A DNA stretch of 58,954 nucleotides, counting the filler, from Bipalium vagum (taxonomy: Eukaryota): the NCBI GenBank assembly GCA_037834085.1. It is 3 parts of 3 records of this genome, joined end to end, with 100 filler letters (N's around TTAATTAATTAA, not from the genome) between each part and the next. Parts side by side here need not be neighbours in the genome. Positions count along the whole stretch, not along the records: positions 41,111 to 58,954 come from JBBMKC010049208.1; 2 more parts are not named here. The stretch is one strand, 5' to 3'. A model generated the notes under the pieces. It was not told the DNA's origin and did no database searches. It saw only the letters and a program-made list of their open reading frames with translations. The translations under genes were made by a program, and so were the position numbers. Positions 41,111-57,840 of the stretch are shown one piece after another. Within the stretch, counting starts at the first letter, position 1. Each line of letters begins with the position of its first letter.

Positions 41111-41349
41111 TTATATATTTTGATAATAATATTATTTTTAAAATTAATAAAATGAGAATTTAAAATTTCTTTTTTTGAAAATCTTTTCTAAGAATTTTTA
41201 TAAAAAATGTGCACATCGAAAAATATTTTAAAATTATTAAAAAAATATGTTTACATTGTTTTTTCATTTTATTTTTTTATTTATTAATTTTCATTTCATT
41301 TTGAAAACCGTCTCAAATAATTTTTATTCCTTAATTTATGAAATATTTT

Positions 41350-42010
41350 TAAAATTTTACGCCACGTTCCTAATCAAAGGAGCTCATAAAAACATCTCCT
41401 AGTTTCTGCTCAGTCTGGCCATTCTATAAACCTTACACTTTTCCATGCCTGGTGATACATATGAGTTTTCCTAAAGTATGCGAGGAGATATAGCTACCCC
41501 GTGTCTTAACATGGAATAAGCAATGAAGCTTGTGAAAATACTTTCACAGGTACCATTGGTGTTTTTTAAGGTACCCTCTTGAGACTCGTTTGTTTTCAAC
41601 CGTTTGCCACTCAGTATCCACTTCTGACTTCTGAAAATTAGGGTTTTGCACTTTAGGTCTGGTAGATAGGTCTCTGTGAAAGCTCCGAGATATCATTTAC
41701 TTAACCCAGGCATTGCTGGAACTTGAGTTGTCAGTATTTAAAACGTTGGTAGCCATTCCGGTAAGCTCTCAGCCGTTAACCGCAGCACTGTCAGCTTGCA
41801 TTTCATTTTTTTTGAATACCTGATCTTCCTTGCAATTGGAGGTTTTTGAAACTTCAAATATTTCTTTTGATTTTAGCAGATCATTGTGGATTCGATTGTT
41901 TTTCCTGAGAATTCTATTGGTTTCACGAATGGCTGCCAATATACATTGATGCATGTTAAGCATTGTCACTTTTGTCATAGTTACTGGCGAACTGTGTTTT
42001 CAAATATGGT
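41350..42010 (-). mobile_element. ORF1-like helical/basic module of the RLE retroelement array (unit D), disrupted
   Basis: MTKVTMLNMHQCILAAIRETNRIL (helical) followed by EWQTVENKR; lies directly downstream of an RLE 3' end. Confidence 0.45.
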
Positions 42011-42249
42011 TCTATAAAATCAATCAAATGGTCGATAAAAAGGTTTCCCAATAGAAGCCTCTCTGGATTCTAATATATAAAGGGGTTTATTTATAGAGTA
42101 GACGGTACTTTATTTATTTTTCCTAAATGGTCGAAAAGGATTGGATTTAAAATCTGGAATATTTCTCTTCATTTTGTGGTTGATTTGTCATCCGTTTCTG
42201 GCGGTAGGGTTGACTTTTTCAATGAGAATATCCTTTTACTTGGGAAATT

Positions 42250-44200
42250 CAACAAAACGAAACCACGATTTATTTTTTAAATCAAAAATGTGAAAATAAT
42301 TCTAGACAAAAATTTCGACAAAAAATTCCCAAGTATTTCTGTTAGCTATCTTTTCTTGGTAAATCTGCAATCAGTAATTAGCTTGCTCGTTGACAGCAAT
42401 CTATTGACCATTAAAATTCGGCTCGGCATATGAAATTCTCCAAGATCTCGTCGGATTGTGAGATATTCTTCATGGCGCATCTGATCTTTATGTTATCTGA
42501 TTCGGTAACTGTAAAGCCTAAAGAACCTTAAAGTTGATAATTAGCCGGAAATAATGAACCCAGCGCGCCAATAATAAAAGTGCTGAGTTTTACCTTTCAC
42601 CGTCTGCCTAGTTCTCGTTTGACAGAATCCTTAAGAGCCTGATATTTCTTAGGGTTCTCTTCATCGTTCATGGACATTCCAATCATAGAGTCAAATGGGC
42701 AATTGACATTAATGATGTGAAAAATAAGTTTTTCGATGTTATTAATTTAAATGTCCGGTATTAGATTTATGTTGGAAAACAATGCATGTTTTTCAACATG
42801 AGTTTCCCAGTGACTACTAAAAAGTTTTCAATGCTCTACATGGATGTTCTTTATTTTATCGTGTCGTATACGAATCATGGGTAGGACTGAGATACAAGAG
42901 CATAAAGCATGAGAAGCAGTTTTGGTATTACCGTTGGAATTACGGCAAGAGGAAACTTTATGATTTTTCATATTAGTCGGAAGATCATTGGCCGAGCTTT
43001 GTGGATAAAATGCCAGTCATCGATGTCGACTAAGTTTCTCCTTATTTTAACTTCTTATTGAGCTTGATGCTAACTGTCAGGGTTTCTGTCAAAAAATTCG
43101 ATCAAAATATCGCTTTCAGAATATCAAAGTAGGATGGCATATCCGCCTTAGAGACTGATTGATCATTACATTTTCTGAGAATCCTAAAAATTTTGAACTA
43201 AGATCGTGGAGATAAAGAAAATTTCGTCAAGGCCGGATGAATAGATGGACCATATTCAGCGGACCAGTCTGCAGGATCGAGAAGACTAGATTTTTTAGAA
43301 AATTCAGAGAAAATGTTCTCTAAAGAATGATGAGAAAAAATGTGGAGCTCATCAATTAATTTAATAATTTTCATCGTCCTTTGACGGGTTTTTGCGTAGA
43401 GCCCTCTAAGATTGGAGAATATGTCTAGCGTTGATAGACGTAAATCAGGCTTTCTGTCATTTTCAGTTTTCAAAAGTAAACAAGTCAATAAAAAGGTCCA
43501 AACGCTTATCGGTCGTTCAGAAATGTTGTTAAGCAGGGTTTGGTTTAAGAAATTCCTCGCTTAACACACCCGATCAATGTGTTTTAGTTCCGTACAAAGG
43601 GGAGGAATTGGCACTCGGGTAAAATATAGTAGGGGGTCGCTGTAACACGAGCCAAGACTTCAATCGCTAGCCTTGGTCTTACTTCCAGGTTTTATCCTCG
43701 CCTTTGACGGATTTTCTGCTCTTTTTTCTTTTAACTTCAGTAAAGGGAGACTCCGAGCAATTGGATTCAGTAACTGTTTCAAGATTCCTTTTCACAAACT
43801 TATTTATTATTTATGGTATTACCGGTTGTAAATTAACCGCGTTAGCAGAAGTAAAAGAAACGACAAAGTTAGATTTGTATTAAAGAAATTGTCTATGGTT
43901 CTCAAAAAGAGAGCCGTTTTCCATTTTGATATGTGCTGTTCTAAAGCAGTTTTCACCAACTTGGTTGATTTCAAAAGAATCTCGTTGACCGTTTCTAAAT
44001 TTCAAAATCTAAATTGCAATGGTTCTAACAATGTCAGTGTGATGGGTGAAAATTGCAGACCCATCATGAATTCGAATAAAGGCAAATTTCGAATATGTCA
44101 TATCTGTTTGTAAGACGGTGCCTTTCGGGTCCCTGGCGATCAGATTCTCCTCTGCTCTTTTATCTTGAGGAAACTAAGCCAGTTCATCCATCTTCTGTAC
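42250..44200 (-). mobile_element. Internally deleted RLE non-LTR retrotransposon (unit C): ORF1-like, pre-RT region, CCHC, RLE, 3'UTR
   Basis: LYAKTRQRTMKII (pre-RT region); DWHFIHKAR; CRN..HALCSC..PMIRIRHDKI; PDI; INVNCPFD; TFIIGALGS. Confidence 0.8.
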
Positions 44201-44224
44201 ATCTACCAGGACAGGCCAGTTTTT

Positions 44225-55180: not shown

Positions 55181-55449
55181 TGGATCTCGAGAACAGAGAC
55201 GGAGGTTTCCTCGACCTCCTTGACCTAGACAACGGACTGAAAATATCATATTTTTGATTAATCTTTCATTAATTTATTAATCTGAAACATTTTCACATTA
55301 AATATATTTTGATTGGTTCTTTAATATTTGAAAAAATAAGAATTTTTTCTTTTCATCTTTTACAGATTTTAAAACTTTTATCTTTTATTGTTTTATTTAT
55401 ATTATTATTAATTATTACAGACGTGACTTGGTGTAACACTTACATTAGA

Positions 55450-56500
55450 TACAACAAAATGTCAAAACTGAACTTGGTCAATCAACTATGTCACTTGGGT
55501 AAGGGAAGGTCAATGTTACAACATTTATTAAAACAACTCTTTTTGGAGGCAAAACTATTTATCTCAGACATGTTGAGCTGACACTTGATCTTCTTCCTCA
55601 ATAATCGGCTATTGGAAAGTCTTTCAGAGGTTATATTAAAGACAATTCTATCCTATGAGCACTTCATCAAAATTCCCCGTTTGAACAATTTCCGAAAAAC
55701 AACCAAGCTCTTTGGCAAAGGATCTTCTTTCAAGAATATATTTGTTAGTTTGGTTTGTTAAAACACCTCCACCAATCGGGAAATTTTCGGAAACGGGAAT
55801 CATGATTATAAAATTCCCTAAGGAATATATAGTGTGGATCTATAATGGTCCTATGATAGCATGATATCCGGTCCACGCCTGATGATGAATTTGAAGGAAC
55901 ACTCAATATCTGCTACGTCAGTCCCCTCATCTATCAAATCTAGAAATTGTGGAAATTTGGTATAGAAATCCAAGCCAATCCCAGAGGACTCGGTTTCCTA
56001 AAGTGATTCTCCAATTCCATTTTTAAAGGATAAGCTGAGTCTGATGCCAATGGTATAAATGATTCAAAAACGTCCTTCGAATGCAGGTTGAACCCACATT
56101 GGATGGAGTACGTTTTTTGTGTACATTTAGCGATTTTATTATCGACTTTTTCTGTTTTTTCTCGCTTTAAGGAAAACTTGCAGTAAGGCTTCTTCAGCAG
56201 AATGTAAACTTCCCATGAAAATTACTATCGATCAGTAAGCCGATCGAACTGTTATTATTGTTATACATTCTGGTATATTCAAAAGTTTTAATTTTTTCTA
56301 AAATCTTTTGAAATATTTTAGTGTGATCACACGGGCAGTAGAGGGAGTAGCACTCACCTCCGGTTGGGCAGATTCTATAGTCCTGGGAGGGGGACTAAAG
56401 AGATCCATTGAAAGTGCCATGGAAGCATTTTTTGGGCCTTCACCTTTATTCCACTGCAATTTATTATCCTTAAGTTGTTATCTATCACCTTTTGCACAGT
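55450..56500 (-). mobile_element. Unit F: decayed accessory module downstream of an RLE 3' end
   Basis: ALSMDLFSPPPRT (~56380-56420) matches unit A DFSLDLMSPPRT (~45800-45835); the remainder is unassigned. Confidence 0.4.
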
Positions 56501-56539
56501 ATATCTGTTATCATTGAAAATGTGGGATGAAAGCAGAAG

Positions 56540-57840
56540 ACGTCAACATCCAACAGTTCTCGGCGTTCTATATGAATGTGTCCCATTACTTGCTGATTCT
56601 TTGGTGCAAGTATCGGAACAGGACATAGATATAGTAAATCAGTTCTTTTTCTTTAAAACCTATTGAGACGAGAAGGGTGAAATTTTGACTGCAGAAGGAT
56701 TCAATTGCGCGAACGTGAAGGTGTTTGTCGTGCATGTCCATATTCTGCCAAGTTCTTTGATTGCACCGTCAATTGCTGGTTGGTAGTGTTTTCTGTTCGC
56801 GTCGTCATTGCATTTGAATGCAAGTTCTGTATAGAAGGGACATTTTATGTCGATTATCATATAGATTTTCCGTCTGAGATTCGTAAGCTGAATGTCTGGT
56901 TGTAGATTCAATAGAGTGAATTTGGGCTTTCTACTCTAGTATGATTTCCCATTCCGATGGATTCAGGTTCAGCACGTACCCGTGTAACAGATTCCTTATC
57001 TTGTCATGCCTTCTTCGGCTCAGTGGTGTTATGAACTGGCAGGCCCTAATACGTGATCAATTGACTCTTTTTCCTACTCACAAAGGCGGCAAGGTGATTT
57101 CTTGTGGGTCTTTGATTTGTGAGCAGGTCCACCTTCCTGGCTTTGTGGAGGAAATACCAATCCTCCTTCGTGAAAAGTCTCGATCCTCTGACTATTTTTA
57201 TGTTGAGAAAGCTGTTGTTGGCAATCGTCGTGGCTGCAAATCCGGCTGCTTTTTTGCTAGCCCATTTTTCAAACATCTTAATACTAACTTCTTTTTGCAG
57301 GAATGGGCAGAGTTGGTGGCTGTTCTTTTTGTCGAATGTTGATCTGTAATTATTAATCCACACTTCTGGCATTTGGTGTGGTATTCAAAGGTAATTCGAA
57401 TTTCGTGCCATTTCTTTAGATACATTATTGAGCGTAATATCTTCGAGCACCAGGATTTCTTTAACATTGTATTCTCAGCGTCGGCGAGCCAAGCTTGCTT
57501 GTGGATTTTAAGCTAATGATAGTTCCGTGAGAGCTTGCATAGTTATTATGTGCAATCTTCGGTCATCCGCATTACTCATTTTGTGGAAATAGACGATGAA
57601 TTGTATAACAAATGTCATGTCTGATTCTCATGCCATTCGTTCAGACCTATTGTCCCAGACTACCGTGATTGCTAAGGCGTGATTCTTCTGTAAATGATAC
57701 GCCGCATTTTTTTCATCATCTGATTGATCATTTGAATATGATGTCAAAGATTCAAATATTCTATCCGATGTTAACCTATCCATGATCTTTGAGGAGGATT
57801 TTGAAAGATCTCCTGACTTAATATCAAACGGATCGTCGAA
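56540..57840 (-). mobile_element. RLE non-LTR retrotransposon 3' half (unit E), frameshifted
   Basis: EDWYFLHKARKVDL; RRRHDKI; LQPDIQL..IIDIKCPF; ELGRIWTCTTNTF; clearly paralogous to 47571-48632. Confidence 0.92.

Follow-up and report, generated by a model that had tools for sequence, protein, structure and literature searches.

The window analysed here is a stretch of 58,954 nucleotides from the flatworm Bipalium vagum (assembly GCA_037834085.1; 441 Mb in 272,664 contigs), and our subject is an array of broken retrotransposons with a restriction-like endonuclease (RLE) at its far end. The array lies on one contig (C49208:1-17844, window 41111-58954), and the first 41 kb of the window are other contigs. 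Four RLE C-termini lie on the minus strand (copy A at ~56590, B at 47574, D at ~44240 and E at ~42420), together with a piece carrying reverse transcriptase (RT) and CCHC sequence at 46443-47435, also minus. Self-comparison and tblastn with intact relatives as queries agreed on these positions and on the mutual divergence of the copies, in keeping with an earlier note on this DNA. We consider it probable that the window holds a decayed head-to-tail stack of RLE elements with two open reading frames (ORFs) that target the 28S rRNA gene, likely built by insertion at half-copies of their own target. Below, a copy of the upstream half of that target is called a half-site, and one lying outside the 28S gene a decoy; half-sites were scored with a position weight matrix (PWM), and L and C numbers are our handles for loci or families and for contigs. 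The array is composed as follows.

57823-58609, plus: decayed piece of 28S rRNA from the part upstream of the R2 site (665-1888 of the Rfam model), on the opposite strand to the elements
56555-57612, minus: copy A; post-RT part, CCHC and RLE of ORF2, frameshifted and without a 3′ tail
56323-56406, minus: ORF1 fragment, L269 family (85% at the nucleotide level)
55747-56251, minus: fragment of a separate dispersed RLE-type LINE (long interspersed element) family (L189-L197)
51653-52216, plus: RT fragment, same group as the minus-strand copies
50943-51090, minus: 3′ untranslated region (UTR) with GT tail; the family is also inserted in 28S (L058, L066)
50851-50942, minus: decoy; spacer and diverged 28S upstream half-site (PWM 13 bits)
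50545-50900, minus: ORF1 N-terminal repeat, L274/L276-like (48% at the amino-acid level)
47541-49067, minus: copy B; 3′ half of ORF2 with (GTTTT)5 tail, L036-like (70-76% at the amino-acid level in the best pieces)
47437-47540, minus: decoy; satellite-type unit with 28S half-site (47472-47505; PWM 35 bits) and L269-family 5′ stub
46950-47435, minus: RT fragment (54% at the amino-acid level to L041 ORF2)
46443-46945, minus: pre-CCHC/CCHC fragment, L037 family (79% at the amino-acid level)
46283-46444, minus: 3′ UTR and tail of another element, abutting an ORF1 start
45720-46280, minus: ORF1 pieces; helical N-terminal part and L269-like C-terminal part
44230-44470, minus: copy D; RLE C-terminus and tail, running into copy E ORF1
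43663-44230, minus: ORF1 of copy E; the cold-shock region of intact ORF1s is matched weakly (E 6e-4), and Pfam gave nothing
43660-43662, minus: copy E ORF1/ORF2 TGA; decayed copy, no fold (z 0.81)
42255-43659, minus: ORF2 of copy E, of the L045/L043 family; the RT is deleted, and the N-terminal part, CCHC/RLE, 3′ UTR and tail remain
41772-41999, minus: short frame that contains the core of a half-site (at 41984)

Every RLE copy in the window is broken by stops, frameshifts or deletions. The PD..D.K motif is intact in A, intact across a stop in B and decayed in E, and copy D consists of the final ~60 amino acids (aa) only. A GT-rich tail is present behind B, D and E and at two further 3′ ends (46283-46444 and 50943-51090); copy A has none. 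The accessory ORF which the earlier note placed after most of the tails exists, as pieces, but it is not a separate ORF: the pieces, that at 41772-41999 apart, match the ORF1s of intact relatives from several families, and each unit is therefore one element's tail followed by the 5′ part of the next element. The sequence 3′ of the copy B tail was considered as an accessory ORF and rejected, being ORF2 beyond a short stub. Interleaved with the copies are the decayed 28S piece, a multi-copy 5′-nucleotidase fragment, a palindromic 430-bp element and the piece of the dispersed RLE family. Among 30 window fragments searched against Pfam, only the plus-strand RT and the 5′-nucleotidase piece passed the cut-offs, and Rfam detected the 28S piece and nothing else in the third stretch of the window. 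With the intact relatives as tblastn queries, no ORF2 match was found below 41111, as had been claimed; this absence says nothing about the array, because those bases are other contigs.

The RLE end of copy B, used as a query, gave 150 scored matches among 614 candidates. On six contigs ORF2 is open, is 957-1049 aa long and includes RT, CCHC and PD..D.K; the window pieces match these ORF2s. RVT_1 was detected in all six (E 1e-27 to 3e-33), and the order of CCHC followed by a C-terminal PD..D.K endonuclease is common to the six and to window copies A and B. At L036, L038, L039, L040 and L041 two in-phase ORFs are separated by a single stop (TGA in four, TAG in one); the ORF1s of L036 and L038 pass the Pfam cold-shock cut-off and those of L039 and L040 fail it. 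The 3′ tails are fixed and 5′ truncation is variable, with 5′ junctions at many positions of ORF1 and ORF2 and a tail-only insertion in L065. As separate observations, the ORF2 of L039 has a repetitive ~90-aa insertion within the RT, and L039, L040, L061 and L069 represent 28S-inserted families without a long GT tail, three of which share a GC-rich 3′ UTR.

A Ulp1 peptidase is a mark of NeSL elements. No Ulp1-like peptidase (PF02902) was detected in the 11 proteins scanned, and the peptidase is present in many of their closest database proteins. In a quick tree, for which the best 60 of 120 matches were eligible, from which L039 was left out (short match) and which had no rows for named NeSL, R5 or true R2 elements, five of the families and P0001 formed one branch (SH-aLRT, an approximate likelihood-ratio branch test, 99) inside the Ulp1-rich group. 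The best structure-database match was PDB 9nl2 (R2). An N-terminal C2H2 pattern was found in none of the six intact ORF2s, nor were there zinc-finger or Myb Pfam matches. The domains and the closest database proteins support a classification of the elements as two-ORF RLE non-LTR (non-long terminal repeat) retrotransposons close to NeSL/R5, much as first proposed; by the features tested they are neither R2 nor R5.

The target of these elements could be read directly from 28S junctions. A T-rich element end precedes 23 of the 24 matches to the downstream half of the 28S target, some of these filled sites being accounted for by non-coding elements, and the remaining match is an empty site of a different rDNA (ribosomal RNA gene) type. 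The upstream half gave 34 matches, of which 30 were read: the ORF1 starts of several families come directly after it, a blastx match lies within 900 bases in 11 of the 30, and the 5′ ends of L036, L039, L218, L269 and L276 begin immediately 3′ of it. Every 28S junction seen is in the sense orientation. Insertion occurred ~4-10 nt upstream of the R2 nick, with TAAGG retained on the 3′ side; the T tails blur the junction, so the exact nick cannot be fixed, and the assembly has no uninserted copy of the targeted rDNA type. The region closely resembles the Schmidtea region in S6 Fig of PMC4640811. Of the explanations originally offered for the array, that of a target-site or self-targeting array is the one supported, the target being the R2-site region of 28S together with captured half-copies of it.

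Several other sequences were found at or near this site. L056 (on C2, a gapped scaffold) carries another 28S type, closer to the canonical one, whose R2 site is unoccupied; it is either paralogous rDNA or foreign sequence. Non-coding elements occupy the same 28S site at L076 (~1.4 kb), L270, L254, L258, L272, L275 and L267; several copies outside rDNA start at one 28S position ~65-70 nt upstream, and some carry the complement of their own 28S start, like the first helix of a self-cleaving ribozyme. Rfam searches of eight junction loci returned only 28S and U6, and no ribozyme family. The U6 small nuclear RNA (model 32-105, ending at the contig end) is fused to the 28S target region in L260 (C190010), where the sequence 3′ of the fusion matches the 3′ flank of the RLE copy L016; the chimera seems to be an additional landing site. 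In L155, L162 and L163, tails run into 13 nt from the downstream side of 28S and then into sequence that is not rRNA, possibly a downstream-half decoy or a captured 3′ flank.

The elements themselves carry half-sites. A complete direct repeat of ~280-350 bp, with 98-99% identity between its copies, was present in 4 of the 12 5′ regions examined, and its second copy opens with a diverged upstream half-site; a fifth region has a partial, 77-bp repeat at a contig end. When the sequence following the copy B tail was used as a search pattern, 98 matches were obtained versus 13 for the reversed control, and these revealed a ~240-bp tandem unit holding three half-site copies. This satellite aligns with the L269 5′ repeat at 72-83% aligned identity, and judged by that alignment it derives from the 5′ repeat of the L269 family. 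Immediately 3′ of its last motif, 37 rows comprised 19 empty copies, 3 short duplications and 15 filled copies, the last with 12 distinct 5′ junctions (9 match ORF1 or ORF2 by blastx and 1 begins with true 28S). Element tails stand before the next satellite unit in 32 of 40 non-empty rows and fall into 12 clusters, and both junction types converge on one satellite position. Seven 3′-end families were seen in both settings, at 28S and at decoys; among them are the families of C3, E and the 50943 tail in the window. Because the loci were chosen by patterns, these counts show breadth and not frequency.

In the window, a half-site PWM trained on contigs other than the window's own identified two half-sites (47472-47505 and 50851-50884), both on the minus strand and each directly after a tail, with 0.02 expected in shuffles. 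Duplication is shown as well: the block 41111-46450 has many paralogues at 81-94%, and C228996 spans nearly all of it at 87-91%. A possible alternative is that the tandems arose only within genuine rDNA units or in a few founder events, with unequal exchange and segmental duplication moving and multiplying them afterwards, and that their half-sites are passive relics and no functional targets. The paralogues of this lower 5.3 kb speak for such an origin, as do the D-to-E junction, a single event sighted six times, the decayed 28S piece on the array contig, and the Drosophila R1 array, which expanded likewise (PMC5932611). However, a single position of the satellite shows 12 kinds of 3′ end and 12 kinds of 5′ junction, with 19 empty copies alongside; this calls for many independent insertions, and we regard passive relics as an unlikely explanation of the stacks.

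Insertion at decoys was also seen in a sample drawn by protein only, which contained 129 RLE ends, 72 of them with a scorable tail. Twenty-six of the 72 tails lie at half-site decoys (15 at satellite, 10 at spacer plus half-site, 1 at another half-site), 3 at 28S and 2 at a 13-nt 28S look-alike. The 3′ flanks, which the earlier note had proposed to align, recur in part as 28S and half-site sequence. Targeting is leaky, and several observations weigh against insertion at half-copies as the source of the window's stack. Sixteen tails come from a single dispersed family whose flanks are unrelated; 18 scored as other (two are ORF1 starts and one is 28S-like); 6 represent one duplicated junction, that of D to E, and 1 lies at a contig end. 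A recognisable half-site is kept at only two window junctions, and in neither is a new element joined cleanly to the motif by its 5′ end; the D-to-E junction has lost or never had such a site. The RT fragment at 51653-52216 (RVT_1 E 3e-12; 54% to L038 ORF2) is on the plus strand, contrary to the initial claim that all pieces are on the minus strand. Lastly, the N-terminal zinc finger with which R2 reads the upstream motif is absent from ORF2, and the assembly is highly fragmented.

The family behind those sixteen tails (L138, L146, L148, L153, L158-L161, L164, L170, L172, L174 and L180-L183) is a related RLE family whose tail is of the kind seen in the others; its flanks are unrelated in 16 of 16 copies, and it has apparently lost target specificity.

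The stacks have been rearranged since they were built. On C114129, copy B, its decoy and C3 are present with different spacing, and the tail in front of the ORF1 start at 46280 is of one family in the window and L145 and of another in L044, L046 and L111. Given these differing tails and the paralogous blocks, we conclude that the stacks owe their form to shuffling and copying in addition to insertion. The idea that several subfamilies repeatedly hit one locus overstates the case, since block duplication inherited part of the array and similar stacks lie on many contigs. Chaining of repeat fragments by short-read mis-assembly might be suspected from the fragmentation of the assembly and from the order of pieces, which differs between the window and C114129. 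The paralogues diverge by 7-13%, which is sufficient to tell them apart, and other contigs show the same junctions between elements; such an artefact can hardly be credited.

Co-orientation is more frequent than chance would give: of 46 pairs of adjacent ORF2 copies, found in 27 of 99 stretches, 37 point the same way (p 4e-5, a value inflated because the blocks are not independent). A uni-strand trap resembling a PIWI-interacting RNA (piRNA) cluster, in which antisense small RNAs keep one orientation, was the other original suggestion, and dense transposon debris mainly on one strand, including a piece of a non-targeting family, would suit it. Junction specificity at the nucleotide level, however, accounts for the orientation with no need of selection, one RT piece lies on the plus strand, and co-oriented stacks occur on many contigs. 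We find such a trap very improbable as the cause, and a piRNA role could be secondary to decoy targeting.

How half-site decoys might build such stacks can be sketched by analogy with R2. The ORF2 protein, perhaps made by UGA readthrough, would read the upstream half-site and nick just downstream, and the nick would prime reverse transcription of the element RNA from its U-rich tail. R2Bm requires the sequence upstream of its nick and can dispense with that from +6 on (PMC10499050); if the present elements behave like R2Bm, any upstream half-copy with T/A-rich sequence behind it would be a target. The half-site would stay 5′ of each newcomer, and copies would therefore pile up in one orientation. 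Deletion, further insertions and unequal exchange would later have scrambled and multiplied the stacks. Within each family the 5′ repeats are nearly identical, which suggests that they are regenerated in every cycle; speculatively, the internal half-site could anneal to the target and allow strand transfer.

The stop between ORF1 and ORF2 has a structure of its own. In four families a GC-rich stem begins 6 nt past the stop (z -2.5 to -6.0). Across 17 aligned copies, 90% of cells are paired with 13 double changes, a level reached in 0 of 500 shuffles and in no slid control, although kinship inflates it. A genome search with the stem only gave 26 matches versus 0 in the control; a TGA lies 9 nt upstream in 23 of them, though it was not in the pattern (22 are TGA-C), and one match has TGG. 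The frame is kept in 20 of the 26 over five loop lengths, and the first methionine falls at residues 14 to 151. The stem is not significant in L039 (z -1.0), L040 has a different stem, and the decayed junction of window copy E shows no fold. UGA-C with a stem-loop suggests that ORF2 is made by readthrough. Readthrough is known for the UGA of alphaviruses, which has a 3′ stem-loop, and for the UAG of MuLV (PMC8310308), and the precedent in SART1 is stop-start coupling (PMC3894237). With its in-frame stop, short spacer, conserved 3′ structure and polymerase as C-terminal extension, the junction would fit alphavirus-like readthrough better than SART1-like coupling; unlike the viral cases, this candidate signal belongs to a non-LTR retrotransposon.

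R5 of planaria, reportedly described by Burke, Singh and Eickbush in 2003, is said to have two ORFs with RT and RLE, to lie near NeSL, and to occupy 28S in antisense orientation in a minor rDNA type. The present elements would share the two ORFs with R5 and differ in their sense orientation. Closer in several respects are LIN9_SM, LIN24_SM and LIN26_SM, NeSL-related 28S LINEs of planarians (Kojima and Jurka 2015, PMC4640811), which likewise have an RLE, a 28S target, T-rich tails and several families per flatworm genome. In S6 Fig of that paper, diverged upstream-target copies stand before the same LIN9_SM 5′ end, a hint that the same 5′ design may exist in another flatworm. Theirs, however, are antisense insertions at other 28S sites, whereas ours are sense and just upstream of the R2 site, and the part of PMC4640811 covered here is silent on 5′ repeats, on a decoy satellite, on stacks of mixed families and on readthrough. 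R2 elements (R2Bm, R2Pm, R2Tg) share the 28S neighbourhood, the orientation and the RT-CCHC-RLE core (PMC10499050). They differ in having a single ORF with N-terminal C2H2 and Myb domains, versus two ORFs and a GT/T tail; our 3′ junction also lies ~4-10 nt upstream of theirs, and the closest database relatives bear Ulp1.

R1 is an APE-type (apurinic endonuclease) element. Its array in Drosophila, an rDNA-specific LINE lying head-to-tail outside rDNA (McGurk and Barbash 2018, PMC5932611), is the closest precedent, with a regenerated target piece followed by expansion through unequal exchange. It differs in comprising one family with a 33-nt target duplication between copies, whereas in the present stacks many RLE families share element-borne decoys that were turned into a satellite. 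The system thus works like the R1 array and sits with NeSL/R5-type elements, and what the window shows is one old, scrambled instance of a system found across the genome. In the literature covered, which excluded subscription journals and Repbase Reports, we found no account of self-targeting arrays, a decoy satellite, a cold-shock ORF1 or a readthrough cassette; the R5 literature or Repbase entries may contain part of these features. PMC5035012 and PMC10991399 provide context only.

If this reading is true, a site-specific element escapes the scarcity of rDNA sites with its specificity unchanged, by copying half of its target along, and the route from target to element repeat to satellite can be traced. 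The decoys would also be natural variants of the R2-site target read by a protein without zinc finger or Myb domain, which is relevant to R2-based gene insertion, and the ORF junction offers a candidate readthrough signal in a non-LTR element that is open to test. A wider proposal we put forward only tentatively, at somewhat less than even chances: that of an RLE radiation whose LTR-like 5′ terminal repeat carries a half-site, is renewed by strand transfer in each cycle and so provides the elements with landing pads of their own making, one of which became a satellite diverting a dozen families from rDNA, while the RT-endonuclease is produced as a cold-shock-domain fusion through alphavirus-like UGA readthrough.

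Other features of the window are unconnected with targeting. A 5′-nucleotidase (PF05761) fragment lies at 53827-54264 on the plus strand and occurs also on C223235, C205455, C197040 and others; the 1.6-kb stretch that includes it has 50 genome matches (best 81-93%), and long uninterrupted frames are present in L002, L004 and L005. It is possibly part of a host gene borne by a mobile element. Positions 51186-51616 form an imperfect palindrome of 430 bp (72%) resembling a miniature inverted-repeat transposable element, and an AT-rich repeat with two window copies (45208-45507 and 50266-50545; 80%) recurs in paralogous stacks. In the first stretch of the window, inverted repeats (312-752 and 1437-1849; 75%) flank a frame at 1043-1366 that we take to be integrase-like. 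We likewise assume, from their motifs, a glutathione-peroxidase-like exon at 3045-3317 (plus), an intronless sulfotransferase-like frame at 7651-8604 (plus) and an ankyrin-repeat gene at 24678-37043 (minus).

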